Origin: a virus
DNA length: 64,000 nt
Reading direction: 5' to 3' (one strand)
Virus record (IMG/VR): IMGVR_UViG_3300013132_000023
Location: 32,001-96,000 of that record
Shown here: positions 15,159-64,000 of the stretch, piece by piece
Position numbering within the stretch: the stretch's first letter is position 1
Layout: each line of letters starts with the position of its first letter
The notes under the pieces: model-generated
What the model saw: the letters and a program-made list of their open reading frames with translations, nothing else
Databases searched by the model: none
Told to the model about the DNA's origin: nothing
Position numbers and translations under genes: made by a program

Positions 15159-15161
15159 GGT

Positions 15162-20608: not shown

Positions 20609-20614
20609 TGTATT
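20606..20614 (+). promoter_or_regulatory. TAGTGTATT motif, candidate phage late promoter element
   Basis: Third copy; shares the 15-mer TTAGTGTATTCTTTT with the copy at 9295; its TAG is the upstream stop codon. Confidence 0.6.
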
Positions 20615-20702
20615 CTTTTGCAAGCATTGATGTGTTTGTCATAGCATGGTCCGAAGTAACGTTCCTGTTTTAGGATAGTTGCTTTGACTTAGGAGATAAA
20701 AG

Positions 20703-40085: not shown

Positions 40086-40330
40086 AACTGAATACTATTG
40101 TATTAAATAACTGGGAAAAGAATATTGACCTTGCTTTAAAAACGGGTAAGGGGCGTTTTGGTGGTTGTACTTTTGTATGTGATATTTTTGCTTATAAGAA
40201 GATTATTGACATGATTAGAAAAGGTCAATATAAGAAAGCTTATAATTTTGCATATGATCTAGATACACATGCCAGAGAACAGATTCCTATGACTATTTGG
40301 TCTTTTTTGGACACCCATGAAGATAATTAG
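40082..40330 (+). CDS. small hypothetical protein in an AT-rich patch
   Basis: 82-aa ORF overlapping both neighbours. Confidence 0.55.
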   Translation: MKLNTIVLNNWEKNIDLALKTGKGRFGGCTFVCDIFAYKKIIDMIRKGQYKKAYNFAYDLDTHAREQIPMTIWSFLDTHEDN

Positions 40331-41003
40331 TTTTTCGCTTTGGGGAAATGATCCTAAGTATTGCATTGGAGCTTTGCGTAATGCGGAGTTAGCTCAACGT
40401 ATTTATCCAGATTGGATTTGTCGGTTTCATGTTGCTAATACGACAGTAAATTTTCCCTCTGTTGTATTTCAATTATCAGACATGCCAAACGTCGAAATTG
40501 TTAAACTTGACAATTATCGTGCTAATTGGGGTTTGATGTTGGCTCGTTTAGAACCAGCTAGGGATGATAATGTTGAAGTCATGATCAGTAGAGATTGTGA
40601 TTCTCGTTTATCTCAAAGAGAAAAATTAGCCGTGGACGAATGGCTTGCAAGTGATAAGTTATTTCATACTATGCACGATCATCCATTTCATTCTGTACCT
40701 ATTTTAGGCGGCATGTTTGGTTTAAAGTGTCGTAATATTCCTGCTATTGAATTTCCGCATCAAGCCCACGAGTGGTTTATTCAACACGAAGAAAGATGGC
40801 AAGTAGATCAAGATTTTTTAACCCAAAAAGTTTGGTCTATCGTAAAAGATTCTTGCATGAATCATGACGATTTTTATCGTCACATTTGGGGCGGTAAGCC
40901 ATTTCCTAGTCCACGTAACGGACTAGAGTTTGTTGGTCAGGTCTTTGATGAAAACGAAAACACTGTTGCAGAACACCTAACAGCATTAGCAAAAGCATTA
41001 TGA
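40317..41003 (+). CDS. putative GT-A-fold glycosyltransferase-like protein
   Basis: KIISFSLWG..PKY..GA, SRDCDSR (DxD), FHTMHDHPFH, ILGGMFG, DQDFL. Glycosyltransferase activity is inferred from the DxD and DQ motifs plus gene context. Confidence 0.6.
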   Translation: MKIISFSLWGNDPKYCIGALRNAELAQRIYPDWICRFHVANTTVNFPSVVFQLSDMPNVEIVKLDNYRANWGLMLARLEPARDDNVEVMISRDCDSRLSQREKLAVDEWLASDKLFHTMHDHPFHSVPILGGMFGLKCRNIPAIEFPHQAHEWFIQHEERWQVDQDFLTQKVWSIVKDSCMNHDDFYRHIWGGKPFPSPRNGLEFVGQVFDENENTVAEHLTALAKAL

Positions 41004-42040
41004 AAGCATTGTCATTTGATGATATCTCACTTGTGCCGCGATACAACAATATCGCGTCCCGTAAGGACGTTGACACTAGTATTCAGTTTGGTCCATCGAA
41101 GTTGCGTATTCCTGTTTTGTCTTCAAACATGGATACTGTGACTGGAGCCGTAATGGCCAAAAAGATGTACGAACTTGGCGGTATTGGTTTTCTTCATAGG
41201 TTTTGTACCATTGAACATAATGTTGAAATGTATCTTGCTAGTACGACACCGTTTGCTTCGGACACGGTTCGTCGTGCTGTAGTGTCTCTTGGTGTTAATG
41301 AGGGTTTGAATCGATTTAAGGCTTTATATAGAGTTGGTGCTCGTTATTTTTGTATCGATATTGCACATGGTCATTCTCAAGCTGTAGGCGATACAATTAA
41401 AGCTATTAAGGAATTTTACGGTGATGCTTATGTAATCGCTGGAAATGTTTGTACAGTTGATGGAGCACTATTTTTGACTGAATGTGGAGCAGATGCTATT
41501 AAGGTTGGCATTGGTCCAGGGAGCGTTTGTACTACTCGTCTTAAGACTGGCTTTGGTGTTCCTCAATTTACTGCTATTAGAGAATGTCGAAATGTCGGTG
41601 CGTTTATTATTGCCGATGGTGGTATTCGTACGCCGGGCGACGCTGTAAAGGCTTTTGTAGCTGGGGCTGATGCTGTTATGTTGGGTGGCATGTTGTCTGG
41701 TACCGACGAAACCCCTGGTGAACTAGTCCAAGATCGTAAGCTAGACGGAACACCCATCGCTAGTTATCATAAGTCATTTCGAGGAATGGCATCAAAAGAA
41801 GCTCAAGAAGATTACATGGGTTTCATGAACGACTGGAAGACAGCCGAAGGTATCGAAATTAAGGTCAAGGCTAAGGGGCCAGTAGAAAATGTATTGGCTG
41901 ACTTAATGGGTGGCATTCGTTCTGGTATGACATATTGTGGTGCAAACAACCTACGTCAACTGCGTGAACGTGCTGATTGGGTTGAAATCACGGCGTTTGG
42001 TCGTGCAGAAGGATTGCCACATGGAGAAGGAAGACTATGA
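41000..42040 (+). CDS. IMP dehydrogenase / GMP reductase family enzyme without CBS domains (GMP reductase favoured)
   Basis: [39 protein letters not shown] (catalytic Cys), [28 protein letters not shown]; the flap lacks the Arg-Tyr dyad of IMPDH. Confidence 0.9.
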
Positions 42041-42936
42041 AGATCCTGGTTTCATACAGAGGCATTCCTCAGTCTCCAGGTTGGGCGACTGGCGATATGG
42101 TTGTCAAAGCGTTTCGTGCTTTGGGGCACGAAGCTTATCCGTTTGCCAAGTTCTATCAAGAAAATCGCTGGGTTCCCGAACGTCCTTTATTGGACGAGCA
42201 CGAGTGGGACTTAATTCTTTTTATGGAATGCAACGACGGAGATCCGCAATATACGGAGCTACGTGTAACACGAGCACGTAAGACTGCTTGCTGGCTTTTT
42301 GACACGAGTTATCATCAAGATCGTTATCGTAGACTTGTGGATTACTTCGGTTTCAATCACATTTTTCTAGCTAATCCTCTGACTATTCAAGAATACAAGG
42401 TATGGGGTTATGACAATGTACACTATCTCCCTTATGCATGCAGTCGTGAATTACCTGTACGTTCATTGGAATATCCCAAGTCCCGTGACGTGGTGCTTGT
42501 TGGTTCTATTCGGGACGATAGGATTGCTTTGGCTCGCGGCCTCAGTGGGCATGGTGTCAATCTAGAATTGGTTGGTGGCGTCTTCCGCGAACAATACATT
42601 GATGCCTTGGCGTCCGCTAAGATCGTTGTCAATCATAATCCCGAGGCTGGTCGTGGACTTCTAAATATGCGATTCTTTGAAGCTCCGGCGGCTGGTGCAT
42701 TGTTGTTTACAGAACACGTTGATAACGAATGCAATTTAGAATACGGCCTACAGCCAATCGCGTTTCCCTATGAATCTCTAGCAGAAGCCGGAGCATTCAT
42801 CAAGCAGTTCATCAGTCAACCGGAGCATCTACTAGACATGCGACGTGTTGCACAGGAACGTGTATTCGAATATCATACGTACGACAATCGTTGTCGCACG
42901 CTTCTTGAAACGGTTTTTCCAAATGAAAGAATCTGA
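42037..42936 (+). CDS. CgeB-like (Glyco_trans_1_2) glycosyltransferase
   Basis: YLPYAC, DVVLVGS, AKIVVN, LNMRFFEAPAAG, HTYDNR. Confidence 0.8.
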   Translation: MKILVSYRGIPQSPGWATGDMVVKAFRALGHEAYPFAKFYQENRWVPERPLLDEHEWDLILFMECNDGDPQYTELRVTRARKTACWLFDTSYHQDRYRRLVDYFGFNHIFLANPLTIQEYKVWGYDNVHYLPYACSRELPVRSLEYPKSRDVVLVGSIRDDRIALARGLSGHGVNLELVGGVFREQYIDALASAKIVVNHNPEAGRGLLNMRFFEAPAAGALLFTEHVDNECNLEYGLQPIAFPYESLAEAGAFIKQFISQPEHLLDMRRVAQERVFEYHTYDNRCRTLLETVFPNERI

Positions 42937-43591
42937 TACTATTAGCGTTTTGGTTTGTGTTCATAGTCGTGATCGTGAACATGATCGTCTTTTACAGCGT
43001 GCCTTAGAGTCGCTTGTAAGACAGACGTATTCCAATTTTGAAACCATATTAGTTCTTGATGAGTGTTGGGAAGATACTAAGGGGCTTGTTGAAAGCTACG
43101 CAGAAGTTCTCAACATGAGAATCTTTGAACGTCCACACAAGCAGGGGTTAGCTATTGCAAAAAACTTTGGTTTAGCACGATGCGGTGGCGATTGGGTTGC
43201 GTATCTCGATGCTGACGATCAATGGCTTGAGTGCAAGCTTGAAATTCAACGTCAGTGCATGATTGATATGCCGGAAGCTACTGATTTTTGTGGTACTGAA
43301 GCATGGGACTTGGACGAGCAAGGAATGCGTCCTAACTGCTTTAAGGTAGGTCAATATCAAACACACGAACAAATTGCAGCACGTTTGTTGCACGAAAATG
43401 TCATGTGTCATGGTAGTATGATGATTCGTAAGTCAGCTATCGATACTTTGAATGGCTATTCTGAAAGTCGTTCTTTGCTCGGTAGAGAAGATTGGGATTT
43501 GTGGCAGCGTGCCGTCCGTGCGGGATTCCGTTTTTACAAAGTTCCCGAACGTCTCTATGTCTATTCGCTCGGAACGAGCGTTCCTCGCTAA
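42923..43591 (+). CDS. GT2-family glycosyltransferase
   Basis: ISVLVCV, ALESLVRQTYSNFE, AKNFGL, YLDADDQW, EDWDLW. Start ATG 42923. Confidence 0.9.
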   Translation: MKESDTISVLVCVHSRDREHDRLLQRALESLVRQTYSNFETILVLDECWEDTKGLVESYAEVLNMRIFERPHKQGLAIAKNFGLARCGGDWVAYLDADDQWLECKLEIQRQCMIDMPEATDFCGTEAWDLDEQGMRPNCFKVGQYQTHEQIAARLLHENVMCHGSMMIRKSAIDTLNGYSESRSLLGREDWDLWQRAVRAGFRFYKVPERLYVYSLGTSVPR

Positions 43592-43592
43592 C

Positions 43593-44549
43593 ATGAAAAA
43601 CGTACTGTACGTAGGATTGATGTACAACTATGGAAAGCCCCAGGAGGGCTATTCGTACGAGTATATGAACATTGAGGCTGGGTTCAAGGATTGTGCTCAG
43701 CGTGGTATGTTTGAAGTGGATTACTGGCATCCGGATAAAGCTCAGGCTGTGCCGATTGTAACCGAATACGATGCCATCTTCCATGTCGCCTTCAATGAAT
43801 CACTCGACCTACCTGAGGGCGTTGCGAAGCTAGCCCTCAGACAAGACATTCCCGTAATTCAATGGGACTGTGATTCGTCATGGAGATTTTCAAGCTGGAT
43901 CTTGCCGCGTAAAGATCGCGTGAGTCATTTCGTAACCACACATTCTGCTACAGTACCGTGGTATCAACAAAATGGCATGAAGGTTATTCGATCACAGTGG
44001 GGTGGTTCTCCTCTGTATAAGAGGGAGTCGCTTAGCAAGATCTATGACCTGAGTTTTGTTGGTCAGAAACATGGCCGAATGCCAGATGGTCGTTTCTTGC
44101 GTTCAGAGATTGTTAATGCACTTATGGCCGCAGGCTTACGTGTTGATCTCTTCGGCAATTATTGGGATGGATATCAAAACTGGCACGGCTATGCTACTCA
44201 TTTCGAGACGATCATTAATGCCTTTAACGAGAGTCGTATCTGTTTAAACTTATCGAATCCTTGGCATCACAATACTATGCCACAAATCAAGGGGCGTCAT
44301 TTTGAGATTCCTCAGGTTGGTGGTTTTCAGTTATGTACGCCCGCTGACGATTTAGAGTCATACTTTGTCGAAGACAAAGAAATTGTGATTGCACGCTCGA
44401 TAGGAGAGCTTGTAGAAAAAGCACGTTACTACCTTGATCATGAGCAAGAACGCGAAATAATTGCTGAGGCCGGTTATCAGCGTATGCTTAAGGAACATCA
44501 GTGGCACCATAGACTTGAAGCATTGTTTAAGGAAGTTGGTGTATTATGA
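43593..44549 (+). CDS. CgeB-like (Glyco_trans_1_2) glycosyltransferase
   Basis: YDLSFVGQ, SRICLN, QIKGRHFEIPQVGGFQL, YYLDHEQEREIIAEAGYQR...EHQWHHR. Start ATG 43593. Confidence 0.82.
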   Translation: MKNVLYVGLMYNYGKPQEGYSYEYMNIEAGFKDCAQRGMFEVDYWHPDKAQAVPIVTEYDAIFHVAFNESLDLPEGVAKLALRQDIPVIQWDCDSSWRFSSWILPRKDRVSHFVTTHSATVPWYQQNGMKVIRSQWGGSPLYKRESLSKIYDLSFVGQKHGRMPDGRFLRSEIVNALMAAGLRVDLFGNYWDGYQNWHGYATHFETIINAFNESRICLNLSNPWHHNTMPQIKGRHFEIPQVGGFQLCTPADDLESYFVEDKEIVIARSIGELVEKARYYLDHEQEREIIAEAGYQRMLKEHQWHHRLEALFKEVGVL

Positions 44550-44713
44550 GCGATTGTTTTTGGGAAGGCTTTGACGCTTTTAAGAGTGGTCATGACATTA
44601 ATCAAAATCCGTATCCAGAAGATGCTCCTGAACACGAAGAATGGCGGGATGGTTGGTTAGCTGGAGACATGGATCAAAATCTAAACGAAGAGGACGATAC
44701 AAGGCCGTGGTAA
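44546..44713 (+). CDS. ribosome modulation factor (Rmf/CrpP)-like small protein, absent from the ORF track
   Basis: Hand translation: MSDCFWEGFDAFKSGHDINQNPYPEDAPEHEEWRDGWLAGDMDQNLNEEDDTRPW* (55 aa). The G(F/Y)xA..xG...(N/C)PY...WxxGW signature matches RMF; ATGA-coupled to the upstream gene. Confidence 0.7.
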   Translation: MSDCFWEGFDAFKSGHDINQNPYPEDAPEHEEWRDGWLAGDMDQNLNEEDDTRPW

Positions 44714-45354
44714 AAGGATACAACAAATTTAAGGGTACTCTTGACAATCATGACTTCATGACTCAAGAGCACATTGCGGGTTTTTTACGAAACCATAGAA
44801 CTGGTACTGATAACCTGGGGCGTCAGACGTTGGCTCGTATTGTTGCAACGTACGACAATCCTACCGTTGTAGACGCTGCGTGCGGTACTTGCGTTAATTG
44901 GGAGGTTTTAAAGAACGCTGGAGTTCGGTGTCAATACACGGGCGTTGATCGCACCGAAGGCATGCTTGCCGAGGCGGCTCGACGTTATCCTGAAATCAAA
45001 TTACTCCCAGGATACGTTCAAGAGTTACCATTGCCTGATGGTGCGAGTGATATCGTAATCATGCGACACATCTTGGAACATTTACAAGAGGGGTACGAGA
45101 ACGCTATCCGTGAAGGTTTACGTGTAGCTTCAAAAGAACTTATTGTTGTGTTTTTTCTTGATCCTTCTGATGCAAACGAAGACAAGATAGAAGAGTCTCA
45201 ACCAGATGAAAATGGCTGTACTTACTGGTGGAATACATATAGCTGGTCCAAATTCACCCAATTCATTGCTGAACTTGGGCTCCAAATGAAGGTAGGACAC
45301 GTTATTACTCCAGGAGCCGCACATGCCGACACAATCGTACGTATCATCAAATGA
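44707..45354 (+). CDS. class I SAM-dependent methyltransferase
   Basis: VVDAACGT, YTGVD, LPLPDGASDIVIMRHILEHL. Start most likely GTG 44707 overlapping the upstream stop (ATG 44758 is an alternative). Confidence 0.85.
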   Translation: MVKGYNKFKGTLDNHDFMTQEHIAGFLRNHRTGTDNLGRQTLARIVATYDNPTVVDAACGTCVNWEVLKNAGVRCQYTGVDRTEGMLAEAARRYPEIKLLPGYVQELPLPDGASDIVIMRHILEHLQEGYENAIREGLRVASKELIVVFFLDPSDANEDKIEESQPDENGCTYWWNTYSWSKFTQFIAELGLQMKVGHVITPGAAHADTIVRIIK

Positions 45355-45884
45355 AGCTCAATCTTGCTAGCCACGGGGATGAGATCCCTGGATACATCAG
45401 TGTGGACTTCGATCACCCGACCGCTCAGGTGCGAGCGGACGTGACCGATCTTCCGTTTTCCGCCGAATCCGTTGACGAGATCTTGGCGTTTCATATCCTA
45501 GAGCATTTCCGTGCTGGGGACTATGAGCCACATTTGTCCAATCCACTCAATCCCAAAACGGCTAAGCAAGCTCTTGTGGAATGGCAAAGAGTTTTGAAGC
45601 CGGGTGGCAAACTACAAATCAAAGTACCTGATTTCGAAAAGATTGTTTGGCTCTATTACAATTTTCCACAATGGACAAGGGCTGAGTCTTCGGTTAACGC
45701 ACCATTTGGTAACTATTCTGATTGGATTGTATCTAATGGGCAACATCAGTGTCTTTTTAACAAACAAACCATGAAGAGACTGCTCGAAATGACTGGCTTT
45801 ACGCGTATTGAATTTGTTGACGGCGATCCTCAAGCGGTCGTTAGTCGTACTAATCTTGAAATGCATGTCGTGTGTTACAAATGA
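45351..45884 (+). CDS. Methyltransf_11-like SAM-dependent methyltransferase
   Basis: KLNLASHG, GYISVD, DVTDLPFSAESVDEI...HILEHF, EWQRVLKPGG. Confidence 0.85.
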   Translation: MKLNLASHGDEIPGYISVDFDHPTAQVRADVTDLPFSAESVDEILAFHILEHFRAGDYEPHLSNPLNPKTAKQALVEWQRVLKPGGKLQIKVPDFEKIVWLYYNFPQWTRAESSVNAPFGNYSDWIVSNGQHQCLFNKQTMKRLLEMTGFTRIEFVDGDPQAVVSRTNLEMHVVCYK

Positions 45885-46702
45885 AGCTACTCGATTTTCG
45901 TTCAAACTATACTAGTCAATGTGGACAAGATGGTGTCTTGGCCAAGGTGTTTGATGTTCTAGGTATTCGTTCTGGATACTGTGTTGAGTTTGGAGCCTGG
46001 GACGGACTATATCTTTCTAACACAAGACAATGGTTACAGAGTCCGCAATTCTCTGGCTGTCTCATTGAGGGCGACCATGTTCGGTTTCAAGCACTCAAAA
46101 AGCTTTACGGTACACGAACAGACGTGCATACCATTAATACGTTTGTAAGTATTGATGGTGAGAATTCGTTAGATAGTATTTTGCAACGCGTTGGGGCACC
46201 AGTTGACTTTGATTTGTTGTCAATTGATATCGATTGCGACGACTATCATATTTGGAGTTCGCTGCAACATTTTAAGCCTAAGTTAGTTCTTATTGAAACA
46301 AATCCGTACATTCCATTTTACGTTGAGTATGTTCAAAAGAAGAACCTAGGTCGTTATCCAATTGGGGCAAGCGTTGTTAGCATGTACAAGTTGGCCATTG
46401 CTAAAGGGTATCAGCCTATTTGTTACATTGGACACGACTGGTTGTGTTTACGCAAAGATCTACTACCTGCGTTTGATCTTGATACTATGGCTTGTATTCC
46501 AATGTTTTTAGCCGGATCAGATGTTCGCAACAACGATCTCATGGCTCATGGAAACATTATTCCGTTGCCTACTGGTCCAGCAAGTGAGCGGCAAGTCAAT
46601 ATCAACGATATCGTTTATCGTGGTATTGCACCATCCTTTGAAGAGTTCGCACAAGAATTTCGAGTTTTGACTTCACCGAGTGATTTTGCCAGTCTCCTTT
46701 AA
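45881..46702 (+). CDS. FkbM-like methyltransferase
   Basis: SQCGQDGVL, CVEFGAWDG..LSNT, LIEGD, FDLLSIDIDCDDY, PKLVLIE.N. Start ATG 45881 (ATGA overlap). Confidence 0.8.
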   Translation: MKLLDFRSNYTSQCGQDGVLAKVFDVLGIRSGYCVEFGAWDGLYLSNTRQWLQSPQFSGCLIEGDHVRFQALKKLYGTRTDVHTINTFVSIDGENSLDSILQRVGAPVDFDLLSIDIDCDDYHIWSSLQHFKPKLVLIETNPYIPFYVEYVQKKNLGRYPIGASVVSMYKLAIAKGYQPICYIGHDWLCLRKDLLPAFDLDTMACIPMFLAGSDVRNNDLMAHGNIIPLPTGPASERQVNINDIVYRGIAPSFEEFAQEFRVLTSPSDFASLL

Positions 46703-46761
46703 AGCATAATAAAAGGCAAAAATTACTCAACACATTACCTATTTGAGGACATAATACAGTT

Positions 46762-47763
46762 ATGCGAGTTTTGGTTACTGGTGGCAATGGGTTTGTAGGT
46801 AAGCACGTCGTGAAAGAGCTTAAGGCTCGTGGTCATGATGTTATTGCCCCCACTAGACAGGAAATGCCTCTTTTGATTCCGAGAACATGGCTTCCGAATA
46901 AAGACAACTCCGATCAAATGTGCTATAGCGGTGCTTATGGTATAGCTATTGATTTTGTACAGCGTAAGATTGACGCTGTAGTACACTTAGCCGCTACGTG
47001 TGGGGGCATTGGAATCAACAAAGACAATCCAGGTCGCTTCATTTATGAGAACCTTCAAATGGGCATTAACGTCCTAGAAGGAGCACATCTTGCCAACGTC
47101 AAGAAGGTTGTCAATCTCGGTACTGTATGTGCTTATCCGAAGTTTACTGAAATTCCATTTCGAGAAGATGACATCTGGAATGGTTATCCCGAAGAAACTA
47201 ATGCTCCATATGGTATCGCCAAGAAGACCGTCATGGAAATGGGTATTGCCTACGCGAAGCAATACGGCATGAATGTGACCAACCTTGTGCCCGTCAACAT
47301 GGCGGGTGAGTTTGACCACTTTGACCTTTACAGCAGTCACGTCATTCCGGCTATCATCAAGAAGTTTGAGGCTCCGTTGGTCGATGAGAAATGTCAGTTT
47401 GATTTCTCTCCTCAGAACTATCCCAAGAAGTATGTAGAGCTTTGGGGAACTGGCCGTGCGTCACGCGAGTTTTTGTATGCTGGCGATTGTGCGAGAGCCA
47501 TCGCCCTCAGTCTTGAGAAGGATACAGGACCGGAGCCTATCAACCTCGGCACCGGCCAAGAGATCACCATTCAAGCACTTGCTGAATTGATTAAACGTAT
47601 TGGTGGATACGACGCCGATATCGTATGGGTATCGTCCAAGCCCGATGGACAGCCGAGGCGTTGTCTCGATACAAGTCGTGCTAAGCAAGTTTTGGGGTGG
47701 GAAGCTATTACTTCGATTGAAGAAATTCTAGAAAAGACAATTAGTTGGTATAGAGCACAATGA
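46762..47763 (+). CDS. fcl: GDP-L-fucose synthase
   Basis: VTGGNGFVG, HLAATCGGI, LGTVCAYPK, GYPEETNAPYGIAKK, SHVIPAII, WGTGRASREFLY, KPDGQPRRCLD. Confidence 0.93.
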   Translation: MRVLVTGGNGFVGKHVVKELKARGHDVIAPTRQEMPLLIPRTWLPNKDNSDQMCYSGAYGIAIDFVQRKIDAVVHLAATCGGIGINKDNPGRFIYENLQMGINVLEGAHLANVKKVVNLGTVCAYPKFTEIPFREDDIWNGYPEETNAPYGIAKKTVMEMGIAYAKQYGMNVTNLVPVNMAGEFDHFDLYSSHVIPAIIKKFEAPLVDEKCQFDFSPQNYPKKYVELWGTGRASREFLYAGDCARAIALSLEKDTGPEPINLGTGQEITIQALAELIKRIGGYDADIVWVSSKPDGQPRRCLDTSRAKQVLGWEAITSIEEILEKTISWYRAQ

Positions 47764-48779
47764 GTAAGACAGCGATTATTACTGGTGTTACGGGTCAAGA
47801 CGGTTTCTATCTTACACATTACCTGCTTGGGTTAGGATATCGCGTTGTTGGATTACTCCGTCGCACGTCTCTTCCTACCGATGGAAGACTGCGTACTTTG
47901 ATGGGTAGTCCTAATCTACACTTGGTTAATGCTGACATCACTGACATTTCAAGCATTCAACAAGTAGTGCGTCAGTTTAAGCCACATGAATTCTATCACT
48001 TGGCGGCACAAAGTCATGTTGCTATGTCGTGGAAATATCCTTTAGCTACTTCTGAAATCACTGGTCTTGGTGTTCTCAATTGCTTAGAAGCTATTCGTAC
48101 AGAAGCTCCGGAGTGTCGCTTCTATTTTGCTGGAAGTAGTGAACAATTTGGTAATCCCATTTTCGAGGGCAAGACAAAGGCCCTTAATGAGGATTCTCCT
48201 ATGGAACCGGAATCGCCTTACGCGGCTGCAAAGGTCTTTGGTTTCAATATGTCAAGAGTGTACCGTAGGTCGTTCAATATGTTTGCGTCCTGCGGTATTT
48301 TGTTTAACCACGAATCCCCCGTTCGTGGAGAAGAGTTTGTAACACGTAAGATCACGAAAGGTCTTGCTCGTGTAAAATGGGGATTGCAAAGTCATGTTGA
48401 ATTAGGCAACATGAATGCGTGCAGAGATTGGGGATTTGCTGGTGATTATGTGCGTGCTATGCACGCAATGCTACAGTACGACAAGCCTGATGATTTTGTT
48501 ATTGCAACTGGCAAAGCCTATAGTGTCAATATGTTTTTTGATACTTGCTGTTTGTGGTTTGAATTAGATAGAGAAAAGGTCTATCGAAACAATCCGGCAT
48601 TTAATCGTCCGAAGGACGTTGAGGTTTTACTTGGAGACAGTACTAAAGCTACTAACTTGTTAGGTTGGGAGCCTACGTGTGACTTCTATAATCTTGTTGA
48701 CAAGATGTGTAGATACGATTACCACTTGCAGTCGCCAGATAGCTTGCAATCTCGCATGGCAGATGAATATCTTTTCTAG
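47760..48779 (+). CDS. gmd: GDP-mannose 4,6-dehydratase
   Basis: ITGVTGQDG, LAAQSHV, SPYAAAK, GILFNHESP.RG..FVTRKIT, LGN..A.RDWG.AGDYV. Confidence 0.96.
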   Translation: MSKTAIITGVTGQDGFYLTHYLLGLGYRVVGLLRRTSLPTDGRLRTLMGSPNLHLVNADITDISSIQQVVRQFKPHEFYHLAAQSHVAMSWKYPLATSEITGLGVLNCLEAIRTEAPECRFYFAGSSEQFGNPIFEGKTKALNEDSPMEPESPYAAAKVFGFNMSRVYRRSFNMFASCGILFNHESPVRGEEFVTRKITKGLARVKWGLQSHVELGNMNACRDWGFAGDYVRAMHAMLQYDKPDDFVIATGKAYSVNMFFDTCCLWFELDREKVYRNNPAFNRPKDVEVLLGDSTKATNLLGWEPTCDFYNLVDKMCRYDYHLQSPDSLQSRMADEYLF

Positions 48780-55646: not shown

Positions 55647-57188
55647 ATGTTTTTAGCACTGCTTCTTTGTTTAACGCAAAATTGGTATGATCCGGGGACT
55701 CCCGCTACTGATGCTCGTACTATCTACGTAAGCTCTAGCACTGGTAATGATAGTAATACCGGGTTAGATTCTCAAAATCCACGTCGTACGATTCAGTCTG
55801 CCAAGGGGCTGATGCGTCACACGTTTCCAGACCGAATGCTATTGAAGCGTGGTGATACGTTCAACGAATCATTTGGACAGTGGAAGACTAGTGGTCGTTC
55901 TAGTACAGAACGTCAGATAATTGGTGCATACGGTCAGGGGGCAAGACCTAGACTTCTTACTGGAAACGTCACTGGCATTTTTACATTAAATGCAGGCGAT
56001 ACGCCTCCTTCTGTTGATAATGTTGCGATTCTTGATTTAGAATTCTATCCTCAGACTTATACTGGCAATGAAGCTATTGCTGGTGTTAGCTTTTTGTGGA
56101 AATCAGAGAATTGGCTCATTGAAGGATGTTTTATCAGTGGGTATCAAGTTGGTGTTGTGGTTGAAAGCTTTGGTGGACCAAAGAAGAATATTGCTATTCG
56201 AAACAATGTCATTGTTGATTGTTATTCTTTAGTTGGCAGTGTTGGTCATGGTATTTATGCCAGTGGTGGAGATAACCTTTTAATCGAAGGTAACATCATT
56301 GACAAAAATGGATGGAATGAAAGCGTGCCAGGAGCGGTGCCTACTGTTTTTAGGCACGGTGCGTATCTACATCCAGACATGCCACGCAACGCTATTGTGC
56401 GTGGCAATATCATTTCGCGTTCTTCTTCCCACGGGTTAACTCTTCGTGCTGGCGGTACTGTATCTGACAATTTGTTTATTCAAAACTCTATAAACGTCTT
56501 GTTGGGTGGAGGAAGTCCTCAATATGCGGTTGGCGGTATTGAGTTTCGTTTTACTAACAATGTTGTCTTTGATGCAAAAAACATTGACGTTAATAACCCT
56601 CGTGGTTGGGCGATAGATGTAAACAATACAAGGTCTGGTTTGATCAAGGGGAACATATTCTGCCATAACAGAAATGGCACTTTCCCATCGTCATTTGGAT
56701 TTGATGGAGCACTTGGTGTTGGTATACGTAATGTACGTATTCATGATAATATCTGGTACAATTGGAATGGTAGAGGTTCTTTTACTGGCGTAGGTTCACA
56801 ATTACGCAATATCAGTTTCGTGCGTAACGTGATTCATATGTCTATTGATGCTCCGGTATTTAGTCAGGCTAATTTGGCTGCCATAGCTTATGAACGTAAT
56901 ACGTTCTATTCACAGAATCCACAGAATTTCATTACTGTTCCAAACATTGGTACACTTAGTTTTACACAGTGGCAGCAAGTCTGTGGTGACACGGAATCAG
57001 TCTTTGAAGTTTATCCATTTGTCGATCCCACTAGAGACATTCAGCGATATGATATCGTGAATGGTGGGATTGGGACTCTCGATAGCTTTTTCCAGACCGC
57101 TAGAACCCAAAGCAAAGAACTGTGGAATCCTGCCTATACAGCACTAGCAGCTAACGCCTGGATGCGTCAAGGATTTATGCAAAAGTAA
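55647..57188 (+). CDS. right-handed parallel beta-helix (pectin lyase-like) protein
   Basis: IYVSSSTGNDSNTG...P.RTI, LLKRGDTF, IGAYGQGARP, repeated I..N.I strands (IRNNVI, IEGNII, VRGNII, FTNNVV); short hydrophobic N-terminus MFLALLLCLTQ. Confidence 0.8.
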   Translation: MFLALLLCLTQNWYDPGTPATDARTIYVSSSTGNDSNTGLDSQNPRRTIQSAKGLMRHTFPDRMLLKRGDTFNESFGQWKTSGRSSTERQIIGAYGQGARPRLLTGNVTGIFTLNAGDTPPSVDNVAILDLEFYPQTYTGNEAIAGVSFLWKSENWLIEGCFISGYQVGVVVESFGGPKKNIAIRNNVIVDCYSLVGSVGHGIYASGGDNLLIEGNIIDKNGWNESVPGAVPTVFRHGAYLHPDMPRNAIVRGNIISRSSSHGLTLRAGGTVSDNLFIQNSINVLLGGGSPQYAVGGIEFRFTNNVVFDAKNIDVNNPRGWAIDVNNTRSGLIKGNIFCHNRNGTFPSSFGFDGALGVGIRNVRIHDNIWYNWNGRGSFTGVGSQLRNISFVRNVIHMSIDAPVFSQANLAAIAYERNTFYSQNPQNFITVPNIGTLSFTQWQQVCGDTESVFEVYPFVDPTRDIQRYDIVNGGIGTLDSFFQTARTQSKELWNPAYTALAANAWMRQGFMQK

Positions 57189-57189
57189 C

Positions 57190-57879
57190 ATGGAAAAAGG
57201 ACACACAATTCCGATCCTTGGTCAAGGGTACGTTCGGTACATTGACCATCTTGGCAACGACCAACGGATCGTTGAGACGGCCCGCATTTCATACGGGAGT
57301 TCGTCTAAAGGAGCAGAAGCCGACAAGAAACTCTTGTTCTACCTTTTCAAGCACAGACACACTAGTCCGTTTGAAGCGTGCAATATTACATTCAATATCA
57401 AGATGCCTATCTTTTGCATGAGACAGTTTGTGCGTCACCGCACCTTCCGTCTCAATGAATGGAGCGGACGATATAGTGAACTAGGGGATGAATTCTACAT
57501 GCCCGAAGCGTGGAGAATACAAGACACGAAGAACAAGCAAGGTTCGTTGTCTTTTGATGATCCTGTGTGGCATGCGGGTAACGAACTATTGGCTCGTGAA
57601 GCTTTTGAGTCCACATATAGAATCTACCAAGAACTGCTTAAACGTGGAGTTGCTAAGGAACTAGCCCGTATCGTGTTGCCGGTTTCGCTCTTTACGGAGA
57701 TCTATATTAATACGGACGTTCACAACCTGATTCACTTCTTGAATCTACGCCAAGATCCGCACGCTCAGCTTGAAATGCGTGAGATTGCTAATGCTATGGC
57801 AGTGGTTGGCGAGCAGTTGTTCCCGTGGACATTTGAAGCCCGTCAACGCTTTAAGTTTCGTGTAGAAGAGCAGTCGTAA
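57190..57879 (+). CDS. thyX: flavin-dependent thymidylate synthase
   Basis: ARISY, HTSPFE, RQFVRHRTFRLNEWSGRY (RHRx7S), KELARIVLP, HAQLEMR. Confidence 0.96.
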   Translation: MEKGHTIPILGQGYVRYIDHLGNDQRIVETARISYGSSSKGAEADKKLLFYLFKHRHTSPFEACNITFNIKMPIFCMRQFVRHRTFRLNEWSGRYSELGDEFYMPEAWRIQDTKNKQGSLSFDDPVWHAGNELLAREAFESTYRIYQELLKRGVAKELARIVLPVSLFTEIYINTDVHNLIHFLNLRQDPHAQLEMREIANAMAVVGEQLFPWTFEARQRFKFRVEEQS

Positions 57880-57945: not shown

Positions 57946-58001
57946 GAGACGTAGGGGCGTTGCCCTTGTTATGTTTTAAGTCTCTATTTGGAGGTAAGGC
58001 T

Positions 58002-58448
58002 ATGGCTGGAGTTTTGGTTGCATCGCAGGTAGGGTCGGGTACTATACCGTTTACGTACGGCATTTTGTCGTCTGGTCAACGTGGTAATGAGCCTCTTGGT
58101 GGAGGTATTCGTACCGGCAATCAGGTTATGATTGGCAACCCAGAAGACATGGTTGCTGTCGATGCTTTTGCTGCATCTGGTATCGTGATTGGTACTAACC
58201 CGGTAGAAATTCTTGGTCCTCAAAACAATCCGTTGCCGCGTTCTCGCATGGTTCTGATCGAGAACACTGGTACTGTTGACGCTTACATTAGTCATAGACT
58301 TAACTTTACAACCCTTGATGCCTTTGAACTTTCACCAGAAGGCACGGCGGGACGTGATAGCCGCATTCAACTGCCGCTTTTACGCAATGTATCTGTTTAC
58401 GCTAAGACGGCCAGTGGCAGTACAACGATTCGTCTATTGATTGTTTAA
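58002..58448 (+). CDS. putative virion structural protein (paralog of 58676-59113)
   Basis: GGAGG Shine-Dalgarno supports ATG 58002. Shares VM..NPED, V..GT.P, NPL..R..L..N.G....I and VY blocks with the 58676 protein. Confidence 0.65.
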   Translation: MAGVLVASQVGSGTIPFTYGILSSGQRGNEPLGGGIRTGNQVMIGNPEDMVAVDAFAASGIVIGTNPVEILGPQNNPLPRSRMVLIENTGTVDAYISHRLNFTTLDAFELSPEGTAGRDSRIQLPLLRNVSVYAKTASGSTTIRLLIV

Positions 58449-58476
58449 TCGCGGGTCTCCGTGAGGATGGCTCGCC

Positions 58477-58683
58477 ATGCAATACAATACCAAAACATGC
58501 CAGCGTTGTCAGGTTGTCTTTGAGCCAAATAGCGGCTTTCAGAAGTTCTGTCACGAATGCAAGATCGGAAACCACAAAGAGTGGTTTCAAAAACGGGATC
58601 GTGAACGTTTTTTGAACAACTGTAACTGTGGTCGTGCTATGAATGGTGGTATCTGTCCTCATAAGGAGACCATCAGTGAATAA
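58477..58683 (+). CDS. small Cys-rich (Zn-finger) hypothetical protein
   Basis: CQRC...CHEC...CNC...CPH; GAGGA upstream. Confidence 0.6.
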   Translation: MQYNTKTCQRCQVVFEPNSGFQKFCHECKIGNHKEWFQKRDRERFLNNCNCGRAMNGGICPHKETISE

Positions 58684-59113
58684 GCAGTATTTTACAACCA
58701 TTGGTTCGGGTTGTACACCACACCTTGCTCACGGGCCAGCACACGCCTTACCGCAGGGGGCGTATCCCGGTGCCCACAGTAAGAGCGAGTTACGTACTCG
58801 TCCTGGTGATGGCGTTGTTATGCTCAATCCGGAGGATTTTTCTATTTCCATCGGATTGCGTTCTTCTGCCGTTATAGTTGGAACATCCCCTACACCATTA
58901 CCAAGTAATCCGCTAGAATATCGTCGTGCTCTTGTTGTACACAACAATGGCGTTAGCACGATCTTTATAGGTGATAGCTCCGTAAGCACTGCTACTGGTC
59001 TTCCATTAGCCGCAGGCGAAAAGATTGCATTCGATATTCAGAACAATCCAAACGTTGTGGTCTATGGTGTGGCCGGTACTAATACCGATGTTCGCATCAT
59101 GGAGCTAGCATGA
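58676..59113 (+). CDS. putative virion structural protein (paralog of 58002-58448)
   Basis: GTG start 58676 behind AAGGAG; LVVHNNGVSTIFIGDSSVSTATGLPLAAGE beta-sandwich-like pattern. Confidence 0.65.
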   Translation: MNKQYFTTIGSGCTPHLAHGPAHALPQGAYPGAHSKSELRTRPGDGVVMLNPEDFSISIGLRSSAVIVGTSPTPLPSNPLEYRRALVVHNNGVSTIFIGDSSVSTATGLPLAAGEKIAFDIQNNPNVVVYGVAGTNTDVRIMELA

Positions 59114-60210
59114 GTCTCGGTATTGGTGGCATTGTATCTCTTGGTGGTGGGACTGGTGGCAGTGGAGGCGGATCTGGCTCTGGTATTCAGTCTGTAAACA
59201 GTCAGATTGGACCCGCGATTGCCATTACTGGCGTAAACGGCATTAACGTTACCGCTAGTGCAAACGTAATCACGATTGATGGTGCTGGTGCTTCTGGTAC
59301 GGTTGGATCTGCTTCGTCACAATCTGGCGTTATTGGCGTTAATGGAATTACTGTTGATCAGATTGGCGGTAATTTTGTTGTCAATGGTGCCGCATTATCT
59401 GGTTTGATTAGTGGTGGGGTTGTCAGTCTTGTTGCATCTTATTCTGCTACGTTTACAAACGTTACAAGCGGCATCTTCGATCACAATCTTGGAACCCACG
59501 AAACGATTGTACAAGTATATGACGATTCGCTGCCGCCAAGAGTAATTTTTCCAGATGAAGTCATCTCTGAAAACCTAAATCAGATTGGCGTCATCTTTAA
59601 CAGACCACAAACTGGTCGCGTAGTCATTCATGCTCCATCTGGCATATCTCTATCGTCGGGCGGCGGTTCTTCTGTTTCATTAGTTGGTGTTAGTGGTGTC
59701 CGTGTCATTCCTAGTGGTGCTAATTCTTTCATCATTAGTGGCGAAAACATTTCGGTAACTTCGTCGTCGTCTCCATCGAACACCAACTGCTATTCGCAAG
59801 ATTTTACTAACGTTTCAAGCGTTACTGGAATTCACAATTTTGGTACGCTTAATGTACTGACACAAGTTTTTGACACCAATGGACGCGTATTGCTACCAGA
59901 CAGTATTCACGTTTCTGATATTAATACTGTTGTCGTTAGCTTTAATACAAGTCGTAGTGGAAAGGTTGTTGTACACGGCTGTTCGGCACCGTCCTCTTCT
60001 GGAGTCAGCAAGTTCTCGCAATCGTTTACAAGCGTTTCAAGTATAAACGTTTCGCACTTCATGAGTACTCAAGATGTAATTGTACAGGTTAGAGATAACA
60101 ATTCGCCTCCTGGCGTGATTTTGCCAGATTCTATCCTTGTATTAGACATAAATACAGTGAACGTGCGATTCAACTCAATTCGCAGTGGTCGTATAACTAT
60201 CATGGGTTAG
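59110..60210 (+). CDS. Gly/Ser-rich fibre or decoration protein with three ~60-aa HN-type repeat modules
   Basis: N-terminal fibre-like GVNGI repeats, then three copies of F..V.S....H..GT....VQV.D.....I.PD.I.....N...V.FN...(S/T)G.V.I. Confidence 0.7.
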   Translation: MSLGIGGIVSLGGGTGGSGGGSGSGIQSVNSQIGPAIAITGVNGINVTASANVITIDGAGASGTVGSASSQSGVIGVNGITVDQIGGNFVVNGAALSGLISGGVVSLVASYSATFTNVTSGIFDHNLGTHETIVQVYDDSLPPRVIFPDEVISENLNQIGVIFNRPQTGRVVIHAPSGISLSSGGGSSVSLVGVSGVRVIPSGANSFIISGENISVTSSSSPSNTNCYSQDFTNVSSVTGIHNFGTLNVLTQVFDTNGRVLLPDSIHVSDINTVVVSFNTSRSGKVVVHGCSAPSSSGVSKFSQSFTSVSSINVSHFMSTQDVIVQVRDNNSPPGVILPDSILVLDINTVNVRFNSIRSGRITIMG

Positions 60211-60254: not shown

Positions 60255-61013
60255 ATGTTTATTGACGGAGATTTAATCCCTTCTACGTCTGGTCAGGCTC
60301 ATCTTGGTGTTGACGGCACTGGTGCGTCTGCCTTTAGTGCTTCAAGTATTAGTCCTTTTGGACGCGTTCACATGCTCAGTGGCGTGTGGCACGATCCGCT
60401 GTATGGACAATCTGGTGTTATGAGATTCAGTCAACAGGCTGGTGCTTTCCAGGTGTCTGTTGACGGCGGCCTAACGTTTGCTAACATTTCTGCTGGTGGC
60501 GGTGTTTCGTCTATTGGTCAGCTTGGTGGAGCTAATCTTACTGGTAACGTTGATCTTGCTTCAAATGCAAGTGGCTTTATTGCCATTACCGATACAGGTG
60601 GATCGTCTCCTATCTTGTTTGCAGTCGATCATCTTGGGCTTTCAGGTCTTTGGAGATTCCCGGCACAAGGATTCAATAATAGTATTGTCAACGCCATCTC
60701 TGACTTCAATGGCACACAATCGCAGGGCGTGATCAGTATTGTTGGTGCTTCGGGTATCGTCGCCGACTTGATTGGTAACACGCTTACCATTACTCCTGGT
60801 AACACGCTTGGTCGTGCTGTCACGCAAACCTTTTCTAGCGTGAATACGGTAACCGTTGTTCATAACTTTTCAACTGAAAACACAATTGTGCAGGTAAGAG
60901 ACGGAAATGAACGCGTGATTATTCCAGATTCAATTGATGCTTCTAACACAAACCAAGTTGTTGTTAACTTTAATACAACTAGAAGCGGAAGAGTAACTGT
61001 AATAGGATTCTAA
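60255..61013 (+). CDS. putative fibre/decoration protein, paralog family member 1
   Basis: Shared N-terminal domain GDLxP..SG..HLGV...PFG..H..SGVWH...SGV.R...S.DGG.TF; C-terminal HN module; AGGAG Shine-Dalgarno. Confidence 0.7.
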   Translation: MFIDGDLIPSTSGQAHLGVDGTGASAFSASSISPFGRVHMLSGVWHDPLYGQSGVMRFSQQAGAFQVSVDGGLTFANISAGGGVSSIGQLGGANLTGNVDLASNASGFIAITDTGGSSPILFAVDHLGLSGLWRFPAQGFNNSIVNAISDFNGTQSQGVISIVGASGIVADLIGNTLTITPGNTLGRAVTQTFSSVNTVTVVHNFSTENTIVQVRDGNERVIIPDSIDASNTNQVVVNFNTTRSGRVTVIGF

Positions 61014-61014
61014 T

Positions 61015-62196
61015 ATGGGATTAATTGATGGCGATATCGTTCCGTCAGCAAGCGGAACGTCTCATCTTGGTGTTGAAGCCAGAGGGGCATCAAACTTTAG
61101 TATTGATAGTTTGGCCCCTTTTGGCCACATTCATCAATTGAGTGGTGTGTTCCATAATGAGAATGGAACATCTGGCGTTATTCGTTTTGGCATTTCTGCG
61201 TTTGAATTTTCTACAGACGGCGGCATAACGTTTTCTTCGCCTGCCGCCGTAGGCGGCGACAACCGTGACGTGTTATTCAATAACAATGGAGCTATTGCTG
61301 GCGATTCTCTCGGGCTTACGTTTGACGCAACACCCAATATATTGGGCGTTAGTGGAGCAATTCAAGTTGCTAAAACTGATCTAGTTAGAGAAAACTTTAC
61401 TTCCCCCGGTTCTGGTATTGTAGAACTTCGAGCTATTAACCTAGCCGAACGTCCCATGTTCGGTGCTAGTACGTCTGGTCAACAACTCCCATACTTTTTC
61501 CAGCCGTCTTTGTTTAGTAGATTTATATTTATGGCGTACACTTCTAATTCCACGACCATTTCTTCATATGGTAATTCTCTTACTAGCAACGGAACCGTTT
61601 CTCATCCTGCCGCAACTTCTGCTTCTGGTTTTATGGTAAATATTGTTTCTGCCGCGACCGCTAACTCGACTGCTTCTACAGGTAGCAACACTACGCAATT
61701 TGTTCGTGGTGCTTCTTCTGGAATGAATACTGGATTCTTCTATGCAACACGTATAACTCTACCTGATGCCAATCTTGATGCAGGTAGAGTTTTTGTTGGA
61801 TTAGTGAATGGTACTATGGTCTCTTCTGTTGCAGCAGATGACCCAGGTAACAATCACTGTGGATTTAGTTTTTCTACAATTCAAGCAAATCCAAAAAATT
61901 GGTTCTTTTCTACTAGAGATACTACAGCTAGATCAACCCAGGACACTGGTATTTCGTGCTCTGGCAATAGAATTTGGGACATGTATTTGTACTGCCCACC
62001 GGCACCAAACAACGAAGTAATTTACTGGACTCTTCGTGATGTTTCATGGAACAGATTGTCAAATGGGTATGCTATTAATAGACTACCTAATAAAGGATCT
62101 CTAATGAGAGCCGGAGTTGCTTTAAACAACATTACGGCAAGTGCTCGTAACATACGTTTCACGCACATTTATTGTGAATCCATTCCTTCATTTTAA
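61015..62196 (+). CDS. putative fibre/decoration protein, paralog family member 2
   Basis: Same N-terminal domain followed by a different, beta-rich C-terminal region. Confidence 0.7.
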   Translation: MGLIDGDIVPSASGTSHLGVEARGASNFSIDSLAPFGHIHQLSGVFHNENGTSGVIRFGISAFEFSTDGGITFSSPAAVGGDNRDVLFNNNGAIAGDSLGLTFDATPNILGVSGAIQVAKTDLVRENFTSPGSGIVELRAINLAERPMFGASTSGQQLPYFFQPSLFSRFIFMAYTSNSTTISSYGNSLTSNGTVSHPAATSASGFMVNIVSAATANSTASTGSNTTQFVRGASSGMNTGFFYATRITLPDANLDAGRVFVGLVNGTMVSSVAADDPGNNHCGFSFSTIQANPKNWFFSTRDTTARSTQDTGISCSGNRIWDMYLYCPPAPNNEVIYWTLRDVSWNRLSNGYAINRLPNKGSLMRAGVALNNITASARNIRFTHIYCESIPSF

Positions 62197-62199
62197 TAC

Positions 62200-62982
62200 A
62201 TGGCACGAATAAACGGTGATCTTGTTCCCATTGGTAGCGGTCAAGCACACTTAGGTGTGAATGGCGGCCTTGGCGATGCTTTTGATATCACTACAGTATT
62301 GCCATTTGGTCACGTTCACATGAACTCTGGTGTCTGGCATGACCCCGTAACTGGTCAGTCGGGTGTTCTCAGATACAGTCAGGCCGCTAGTGCGTTTCAG
62401 GTTTCTATTGACGGCGGCAGAACATTTACTAATTTAGCCACGGGTGCCGGTGGGGTTTCGTCGGTTGGCGTTTTGGGTGGGGCAAACCTCACTGGCGACA
62501 TTGATCTTGCCTCGCAATCAAGTGGATTCATTGCAATTACCGACAACGGTGGTGCAAGTCCAGTCTTTTTTGCCGTTGATCATCTTGGTCTTTCTGGTCT
62601 TTGGAAATTTCCGGCCCAGGGATTCAACGGAAGTGTTGTTAATTCATTGACTGACTTCAACGGCACAACGTCTCAGGGTGCTATTAGTGTTGTTGGTGGT
62701 TCTGGCATTATTGCAGACATTGTTGGTCAGACATTGACGATTGCTTCAAACGTAAACTTAGCTTCGGTAGCACGCTGTTATTCTGAAATCATCTCTGTTG
62801 CGGTTACAGAGTGGGTTATTACACACAATCTTAATACTACAGCGGTAAGCATTTCTGTGTACGACAACAGTACTCCTCGTCAAGCGGTTTTTCCTGACAA
62901 AATCGAAACAACCAATGCCAATACTGTTACCATTTCTTTCAACGCTAGTCAAGCTGGATTCATTGTTATCATGGGGTGCTAA
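62200..62982 (+). CDS. putative fibre/decoration protein, paralog family member 3
   Basis: Collinear and highly similar to 60255-61013 (e.g. LGGANLTG..DLAS..SGFIAITD.GG.SP..FAVDHLGLSGLW.FPAQGFN). Confidence 0.7.
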   Translation: MARINGDLVPIGSGQAHLGVNGGLGDAFDITTVLPFGHVHMNSGVWHDPVTGQSGVLRYSQAASAFQVSIDGGRTFTNLATGAGGVSSVGVLGGANLTGDIDLASQSSGFIAITDNGGASPVFFAVDHLGLSGLWKFPAQGFNGSVVNSLTDFNGTTSQGAISVVGGSGIIADIVGQTLTIASNVNLASVARCYSEIISVAVTEWVITHNLNTTAVSISVYDNSTPRQAVFPDKIETTNANTVTISFNASQAGFIVIMGC

Positions 62983-64000
62983 ATGGCAACACGCGTAGGT
63001 GATCTATATCCTTTTTCTAGTGGTACTTCTAGTTTAGGGGTTGAAATGACGAACGGTAGTCCTACTAGGGACATCGTTCCGTTTAATGCTATACACGTCA
63101 ATAGCGGCATTTTTCACAACGTTAACGGTGGTTCTGGTGTTCTTCGTTATGGGGCCGTAAACAAGGTCATTGAATATTCAAATGACGGTGGTATTACGTT
63201 TTCGCCGCTTTCAATTAGCATGCAGGCCGCCTACGATGGTGGTAATGAAATCAGTTCTGATAAAATCGGTGGTATTAGTCGTGGGGTTGTCTTTAAAGAC
63301 AGAAGCAGATCATTGTTGTATCCAACATGGTTTGATCTTAGCAATAAAGACTTTGCTATCGCCGTTAGTGGTTTTGCGTTAGATCAAAACGATCCTAATC
63401 GAGCACACTTACTAAGAATTGCGTCAAATGGTATACTTGTACGAGGATCTGGTGTAGATATTTCACAACAAACACCATCAGAATTGTTCATGGGATATCT
63501 TAATGATGGTCCTGGCGGTATCAATTCTCAAAACAGTGTGCCTATTATTCTAGGTAGTGGTGCTCTTGGTTTATACGTTATTGCAGTAAATGGACTATCT
63601 ATGGCAGTGCCTGATGGTCCTTCTGTAATGAATTTTGGTGGTGGTGTAGCGATTGGTGTTGAAGGCAACGTTACGCTTGATAACGGTGGAGGAGATTTTG
63701 TAATTGATATTTCTGCTGGTCAAACACTTACATTAGATTGTGATACTGGTGATGTTACAAGTAGACCATTTCAAAATTTTCAGTTTGATGCTTTTAATGG
63801 TAGTGGTCGTTTAACTTATCGTTTTGGTCCACACGAAGGATGGGCCTGGAAGCCTAGTTACGCAAGTACCGGAGGTACCGCTAATGATGGCTTTTTCCCG
63901 ATTCCTCACTCGGGACAAATCCAGTCGATGATCAAGCTACAGACTGCATACGAAAACGACAATGCTGTTTTGACAACTACGGCTCAAGGTGGTCCACTGT
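62983..64000 (+). CDS. putative fibre/decoration protein, paralog family member 4 (3'-truncated, absent from the ORF track)
   Basis: Hand translation from ATG 62983 is open to the window end: MATRVGDLYPFSSGTSSLGVE...PFNAIHVNSGIFHNVNGGSGVLRY...YSNDGGITF...MQAAYDGGN...LQTAYENDN. Confidence 0.8.
   Translation, partial: MATRVGDLYPFSSGTSSLGVEMTNGSPTRDIVPFNAIHVNSGIFHNVNGGSGVLRYGAVNKVIEYSNDGGITFSPLSISMQAAYDGGNEISSDKIGGISRGVVFKDRSRSLLYPTWFDLSNKDFAIAVSGFALDQNDPNRAHLLRIASNGILVRGSGVDISQQTPSELFMGYLNDGPGGINSQNSVPIILGSGALGLYVIAVNGLSMAVPDGPSVMNFGGGVAIGVEGNVTLDNGGGDFVIDISAGQTLTLDCDTGDVTSRPFQNFQFDAFNGSGRLTYRFGPHEGWAWKPSYASTGGTANDGFFPIPHSGQIQSMIKLQTAYENDNAVLTTTAQGGPL

Follow-up and report, generated by a model that had tools for sequence, protein, structure and literature searches.

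The IMG/VR virus record IMGVR_UViG_3300013132_000023 comprises 137,177 bases (linear class, ~87% complete), of which we analysed bases 32001–96000. This stretch of 64,000 nucleotides is called the window below, and positions refer to it unless another contig is named. Here we describe four tandem genes, g1 to g4, with which a block of genes on the + strand ends, and the N-terminal domain that they share. Their source is most likely an uncultured large tailed phage, whose relatives measure 148–183 kb. Terminase and portal genes are found on the record upstream of the window, and the window itself encodes a tape-measure gene (1223–6418) with large unannotated tail genes next to it, as well as replication genes, an island of sugar genes, RNR and ThyX. 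Approximately 40 kb separates the g1–g4 cluster from the tape-measure and tail block. The four genes and their shared domain, hereafter the head, are laid out as follows (lengths in amino acids, aa):

60255–61013, + strand: g1, 252 aa; head at 60255–60491, then a shaft and a C-terminal Ig-like domain (match to phrog_21918 / phrog_16122, residues 192–250)
61015–62196, + strand: g2, 393 aa; head at 61015–61248, then a distal module of ~310 aa
62200–62982, + strand: g3, 260 aa; head at 62200–62439, then a shaft and a C-terminal Ig-like domain
62983–64761 (past the window end at 64000), + strand: g4, 592 aa; head at 62983–63210, then a long variable distal part

The g4 protein is identical to the metagenomic library protein P0002, and g1, with 58% identity, is a diverged extra copy of g3. 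A preliminary description of the stretch had proposed four tandem paralogs with a common N-terminal domain of ~75 aa, and this is confirmed, the domain measuring ~78 aa. When the six-frame translation of the contig was searched with a profile of the head, exactly four copies were recovered with E values of 4e-42 to 1e-37. The next match had an E value of 0.37, and the similarity of the four copies is thus far above chance. The same description had reported three invariant Ser-Gly (SG) pairs, and these pairs, their flanking residues and the Ser codons listed at the time were found exactly as given. Together with a hairpin that closes the head, they lie at the following positions, with codons in the order g1, g2, g3, g4:

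SG site 1, + strand: g1 60288–60293 (TCT GGT), g2 61051–61056, g3 62236–62241, g4 63019–63024; Ser codons TCT/AGC/AGC/AGT
SG site 2, + strand: g1 60378–60383, g2 61141–61146, g3 62326–62331 (TCT GGT), g4 63103–63108; Ser codons AGT/AGT/TCT/AGC
SG site 3, + strand: g1 60411–60416, g2 61171–61176, g3 62359–62364 (TCG GGT), g4 63133–63138; Ser codons TCT/TCT/TCG/TCT
Asp-box-like hairpin S-x-D-G-G-x-T-F, closing the head, + strand: g1 60456–60479, g2 61210–61233, g3 62404–62427, g4 63178–63201

Across the first ~78 residues of g1–g4, 26 of the 81 alignment columns are invariant and four of the 26 are Ser. The fourth Ser, which sits in the Asp-box-like word, had been overlooked in the preliminary description, as had the fixed Gly, Pro, His, Arg, Asp and aromatic columns. 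Numbered by the g3 (62200) protein, the invariant residues other than Ser include G6, D7, P10, L18, G19, V20, P35, F36, H40, H47, G52, V56, R58, D71, G72, G73, T75 and F76.

The closing hairpin may resemble a blade of a BNR/Asp-box sialidase-type propeller, as the motif is seen by eye at the head end in all four proteins. The matches to such proteins are weak, with scores below curated or meaningful thresholds. PF02012 (BNR/Asp-box) matches two of the four heads at an E value of 0.027, which is under the Pfam cut-off; a genome-wide search with this family gave no match on the contig, and control genomes were likewise without a match. Searching the head sequence against the PDB returned weak profile matches to the Asp-boxes of a xyloglucanase and an anhydrosialidase. 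A match to the designed Pizza propeller (NHL-type) has a whole-sequence E value of 1e-8, which is the sum of six stretches of 5–7 bits with per-stretch E values of 64–260, and the Pfam NHL family has no match in the head or the tail proteins. Unlike the sialidase-type proteins, each chain has a single Asp-box, and a blade profile finds no further significant copy in g1–g4 or the tail proteins; a multi-blade propeller is therefore not supported.

The head family and its serine codons

In a set of 1.84 billion representative proteins, the head profile (79 positions) has 182 matches at E ≤ 1e-3, of which 138 reach E ≤ 1e-10. Among the best 150 matches, 139 have a complete head that starts within the first 35 residues; the remainder are three proteins with a partial head and eight long repeat proteins matched via Asp-box-like stretches. 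These 11 were set aside, and all column counts below refer to the 139 complete-head members, which range in length from 69 to 1156 aa. The Ser-Gly columns are nearly invariant: S13 is kept in 137 members, G14 in 138, S43 in 139, G44 in 139, S53 in 139 and G54 in 138. Other columns are similarly conserved (G19 in 138, P35 in 139, R57 in 139, D7 in 133, P10 in 131, H40 in 123 and H47 in 120).

In the copies of Pfam and PHROG that we used, no family matches the head. It is also absent from isolated phages, as represented by 50,697 GenBank records, where blastn of the region gave no match and tblastn of g3 gave a single 65-residue match to the Ig-like end. A word-indexed protein search for relatives returned six matches, none informatively named. 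On these searches, the head would be a previously unnamed domain family inside a well-known kind of protein.

Carriers of the head family comprise 18 IMG/VR contigs (61–183 kb) and one contig from a metagenome-assembled genome (MAG). The latter, L037, is 157,945 bases long and was binned with a Hydrogenophaga MAG; it encodes family members of 276 and 608 aa and has five matches to the glycosyltransferase family GT2. Its binning is at most a weak hint of the host, or a binning artefact. A narrower alignment search for more distant carriers gave only the same virus contigs and one MAG contig. The preliminary description had suggested counting copies of the domain with a hidden Markov model; by this count there are four in the contig and one to four in tandem at each relative locus, alongside the 139 of the best 150 metagenomic matches.

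Gene order is conserved among the related loci. It runs from RNR through a small gene, thyX, two small paralogs, an Ig-repeat gene, a g3-like gene of ~256 aa and a long variable g4-like gene to a further small gene and a strand switch. Given this order, and with a g3 ortholog (~256 aa) in every related locus, we regard g3 and g4 as the core pair. L005 has an ortholog of g2, and L004 a fused copy. In the latter contig, positions 10773–13778 form a single open frame of 1002 aa with three fibre-gene-like units, each headed by the domain, so that two heads are internal; the last unit ends in the g2 distal module with 63% identity. Candidate readings of this frame are a multi-node fibre formed by fusion, a polyprotein and an artefact of assembly.

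To follow the Ser codons, we counted 36 distinct head copies from this genome and the relative loci. The ratio of AGY to TCN codons is 32:4 at site 1, 26:10 at site 2, 2:34 at site 3 and 1:31 at the Asp-box Ser. On a quick likelihood tree, the minimum numbers of codon-set switches are four, four, one and one, respectively; these minima are rough because the tree was built from only 77 domain columns. Taken together, the three SG serines switched codon set at least nine times among the 36 copies, and from these repeated switches it follows that Ser was retained across changes of codon set. The strong selection for Ser that had been proposed from the four genes is thus supported: Ser is present in 137, 139 and 139 of the 139 members through at least 4 + 4 + 1 switches.

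According to PMC6872785, conserved serines under purifying selection swap between the TCN and AGY sets, via a double change or a non-Ser intermediate. The head sites are an instance of the same general phenomenon, which by itself is no pointer to modification. Invariance of Ser shows only purifying selection, since Gly, Pro and Arg columns are just as invariant, and in combination with the switches it would indicate that this selection acted over a long divergence without telling why Ser is kept.

A predicted trimer and its exchangeable ends

Full-length g3 was modelled as a monomer by AlphaFold2 with a predicted local distance difference test score (pLDDT) of 71, and the head alone with a pLDDT of 74 and a predicted template modelling score (pTM) of 0.57. 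Within the head monomer, residues 41–80 have pLDDT values of 85–91 and the first 40 residues values of 56–65. The confident part is a three-stranded sheet (44–48, 53–60, 65–69) with the closing Asp-box hairpin. In this model SG site 2 is placed directly before the first strand of the sheet and site 3 within the second strand. Foldseek comparison of the full g3 model with the PDB gave nothing at E ≤ 0.001 and only weak Ig-like rows. For the head model, the best Z in a wide VIA-align search was 2.8, residues 43–80 aligning with single propeller blades at Z 2.2–2.8, which is too weak to name a fold; the best E value in a BFVD search was 0.04.

A three-chain model of g3 scored 0.76 (0.79, 0.76 and 0.76 in the individual runs) versus 0.00 for the best of three controls, with ~900 contacts. 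At least 70% of the contacts are shared between runs, the partner pLDDT is at least 69, and two of the three runs have a pLDDT of 82. Of the calibration proteins, 20 of 30 known as one-chain pairs and one of 23 known as single chains attained the mark, counts that hold only roughly for the g3 trimer because they were obtained with two copies and the tool's own alignments. The models thus support a homotrimer of g3. Inter-chain contacts involve 64 of 80 residues of the head, 93 of 105 of the shaft and 30 of 75 of the Ig-like end, a pattern that in the model is that of an intertwined fibre with lobes at the tip. The pairs predicted with the lowest error between chains include residues 38/40 with 45–47, around SG site 2, and residue 55 with 59/66. 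The variable loop 24–32 and the Asp-box residues 69, 71 and 74–76 are outside the contact zone. All six residues of the SG pairs are inside it in at least two of the g3 copies. The preliminary description had proposed modification sites and had named burial of the serines as a finding that would speak against them; with a zone that takes in most of the head, the SG pairs can be called buried in a loose sense only.

The distal parts are of several kinds. Compared with viral protein clusters, the ~310-aa distal part of g2 has feature scores of 0.98, 0.95 and 0.94 (204, 198 and 180 shared features), and Mtd_N is found on 15% and 81% of the members of two of these clusters. Template modelling scores (TM) of this module are 0.75–0.81 to viral clusters and a DUF2793 cluster, and the module occurs in other phages behind Mtd_N or DUF2793 heads. 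Searches of g2 and g4 against the PDB gave no match. Of 95 homologs scanned, six end in BclA_C-like matches that all fall under the Pfam cut-off. DUF2345 occurs in two, passing the cut-off in one case. For PF26696 PTL_trimer the Atlas comparison gives a feature score of 0.89 (128 shared features), which the tool grades as a lead only.

Based on these results, we hold with moderate confidence that g1–g4 encode fibre proteins that form trimers, that these share a head for trimerisation and attachment in front of exchangeable distal modules, and that Ser is kept for structural reasons. We infer both that the head docks to the virion and that Ser has a structural role. In such a fibre, three chains would intertwine via the head and the shaft behind it. 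The head would consist of an N-terminal arm (G-D-L-x-P-x-x-S-G-x-x-x-L-G), a His-rich strand, two 'S-G-hydrophobic' strands and the Asp-box-like hairpin, and it would serve as the common part for trimerisation and, presumably, virion attachment. Interchangeable distal modules would follow: Ig-like in g1 and g3, associated with Mtd_N and DUF2793 in g2, and long and unique in g4. The SG pairs would lie in the tightly packed core of the head, as small residues at strand starts between the chains that are held by purifying selection, and the TCN/AGY switches would be the product of long divergence under such structural selection.

Modular tail fibres and tailspikes attach by an N-terminal part that is conserved and bind receptors by C-termini that can be exchanged, as in paralogous spikes with one adaptor head. 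The present proteins are like them in the N-terminal position of the head in 139 of the best 150 matches, the variable C-termini, the one to four tandem paralogs per locus, the predicted trimer and the occurrence of the g2 module behind other heads. They are unlike them in that the head has no match in Pfam, PHROG or solved structures, is absent from the GenBank phage records and is encoded ~40 kb from the tail block. Of the common virion-docking module with variable C-terminal payloads that had been proposed for the four genes, the module and its payloads are borne out by the architecture of the family, and the docking remains a presumed function.

Several points weigh against a trimeric fibre with structurally constrained serines. 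The attachment role of the head is one that we infer. The open frame of L004 contains two internal copies, so the head need not be N-terminal, and the fold searches gave no convincing match for it. With 80% of the head inside the contact zone, the location of the SG pairs in the interface discriminates little and is weak evidence for a structural role. Moreover, if Ser were kept for structure alone, there would be no reason to expect that Thr, Ala and Asn are strictly excluded at the three sites, or that SG is approximately twofold in excess in unrelated outer tail proteins and behind the heads of 129 homologs, as described below. If g1–g4 are such fibres, an unnamed and widespread N-terminal head joins the catalogue of phage fibre modules, and the family would help to annotate genes for fibres and receptor-binding proteins in a large clade of uncultured phages, whose tail genes have almost no matches elsewhere.

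Ser-Gly excess in outer virion proteins and possible alternative roles of the head residues

The frequency of SG was determined over the whole contig using a simple greedy pick of open reading frames (ORFs), with expectations from shuffles within each protein. Downstream of the tape measure, a set of nine genes has 100 SG pairs versus 43.6 expected (z 9.5), and the eight genes of the fibre cluster have 59 versus 32.9 (z 5.3). The excess persists in g1–g4 when the heads are removed (26 versus 15.1, z 3.1). Values are at expectation in 42 replication, glycosyltransferase and metabolism genes (44 versus 42.1, z 0.3) and in 93 remaining genes (64 versus 63.7, z 0.0), and 20 genes of the head-to-tape-measure block have 43 versus 30.3 (z 2.4). 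As a control, 21 structural proteins of T4, including its fibres, show no excess (79 versus 74.4). The signal is thus confined to the outer virion blocks. When all dipeptides are compared across the 15 tail and fibre proteins, SG deviates most (158 versus 75.3, z 9.8) and GV comes next (z 3.8). The SG excess is specific to Ser, with TG depleted (40 versus 55.7), and oriented, with GS at expectation (70 versus 75.5); SA is also depleted. The flanks are biased as well, with Pro, Ala or Gly at –1 and Ile or Val at +2.

The nine post-tape-measure genes (window 6415–21368) include proteins of 1677, 1122 and 692 aa, and their only family matches are PKD and ConA-like, both in the 1677-aa protein.

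The excess recurs in the diverse distal parts of the 129 homologs (54,987 aa), in which 1142 SG pairs are present versus 620 expected (z 24). SG is above expectation in 90 of the 93 homologs long enough to judge, with a median of 1.8-fold. Serines in SG pairs are conserved far above other serines, at 93% (three sites) versus 35% (18 sites) in g3 orthologs and 50% (13 sites) versus 15% (43 sites) in g4 orthologs. In g3 itself, the SG serines are residues 13, 43 and 54 in the head and also include residues 108, 132 and 168. The SG-rich tail proteins span different folds (PKD, ConA-like and Ig-like) and have no NHL-type repeats.

These patterns raise the possibility, which we advance only tentatively, that SG pairs, the three of the head included, are O-glycosylation sites. 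The address would be [Pro/Ala/Gly]-Ser-Gly-[Ile/Val]-hydrophobic, and the phage's own soluble glycosyltransferases would coat the outer tail and the fibres; such a function may coexist with a structural role of Ser. The candidate enzymes are encoded in the sugar island of the window (32928–48779), where nine ORFs score above the Pfam cut-offs for GT1, GT2 and Glyco_trans_1_2. Its glycosyltransferase part spans 32928–44549, and the GDP-sugar genes lie at 46762–48779. The island further contains two methyltransferases, an IMPDH/GMP-reductase-like gene, an epimerase/reductase and a GDP-mannose 4,6-dehydratase. Each of the 18 related virus records has three to six GT2 matches and the MAG contig has five, so that no head carrier without glycosyltransferase genes was found among the 18 records and the MAG contig. 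This co-occurrence is confounded by descent because all carriers found belong to one clade, and the island could act on DNA or on the host surface instead.

Directly upstream of the island, an ORF at 32272–32931 has a match to sigma-70 region 2.

Glycosites are mostly found in loops and tend to be replaced in the course of evolution. With their fixed positions and their place in the predicted inter-chain zone, the three head sites would be unusual glycosites. Furthermore, the oriented word Ser-Gly-hydrophobic could mark the start of strands in these particular fibre folds, and the codon switches can be explained without glycosylation. For comparison, in mycobacteriophages virion proteins are O-glycosylated by phage-encoded glycosyltransferases, and the glycans are placed at the C-termini of capsid and tail-tube subunits in the account of Freeman et al. 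2023 that is given in PMC12619734. The present phage is similar to those described there in having its own glycosyltransferases and sugar-nucleotide genes, with surface virion proteins as candidate targets. It differs in that its candidate sites, a Ser-Gly word, are spread over fibre and tail-tip proteins.

We consider it less likely than not that Ser-Gly-Ile/Val on the fibre and tail-tip proteins is a sequon for a clade-wide, sequence-addressed sugar coat on phage tails, written by the nine-glycosyltransferase island with its GDP-sugar and methyltransferase genes. Should Ser-Gly prove to be such an address, phage virion glycosylation would gain its first short sequon. A literature search for Ser-Gly as an O-glycosylation word of phage virions found no match among the papers listed from a collection that is incomplete, so that a precedent in print is possible.

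It is very improbable that the Ser, His and Asp of the head form another functional site, either a metal site on the three-fold axis (HxH) or a nucleophilic Ser for autoprocessing or partner attachment. H40 and H47 are kept in 123 and 120 of the 139 members, H-x-H occurs in 87 of the 139 as well as in g2 and g3, and residues 38/40, both His, are among the lowest-error inter-chain contacts of the trimer model. HxH motifs from three chains bind iron in several trimeric fibres and spikes (T4 gp37, the R-pyocin fibre and P2 gpV; PMC6116203). As in those proteins, the putative metal-binding H-x-H of g2, g3 and the 87 members, three residues before SG site 2, lies in a predicted inter-chain core. 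Unlike in those proteins, the first His is absent from g1 (Arg), g4 (Ala) and 52 of the 139 members, and a six-His site therefore cannot be general. The metal idea accounts for His and leaves Ser unexplained, and the head proteins match no hydrolase or autoprocessing family. A serine-hydrolase-type reading (G-x-S-x-G, GDSL) was rejected, as the spacing does not fit and there is no family match.

Neighbouring genes

Upstream of g1, the conserved gene order of the relatives is represented by the following genes:

57960–59113, + strand: pair of small paralogs (162 and 156 aa) that in relatives, too, stand immediately before the putative fibre genes; one matches phrog_30212
59110–60210, + strand: conserved gene, 366 aa, with a Gly/Ser-rich start and then three Ig-like modules; SG 16 versus 8.5 expected

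The two small paralogs are candidate adaptor or assembly proteins. The Ig-like module at the ends of g1 and g3 recurs three times in the 366-aa gene, and the corresponding PHROGs are labelled 'virion structural' or 'head decoration'.

Between the small gene that follows RNR and thyX, positions 55647–57188 encode a right-handed beta-helix protein of 513 aa (Pfam Beta_helix; PHROG 'tail spike') that is without the shared head. It has no tblastn match in the related loci among the matches listed. The thyX gene itself (57190–57879) is 68–75% identical in L004, L005, L006 and L016 and 27–40% identical in the other relatives, which suggests that it was swapped for a different allele in some of them.

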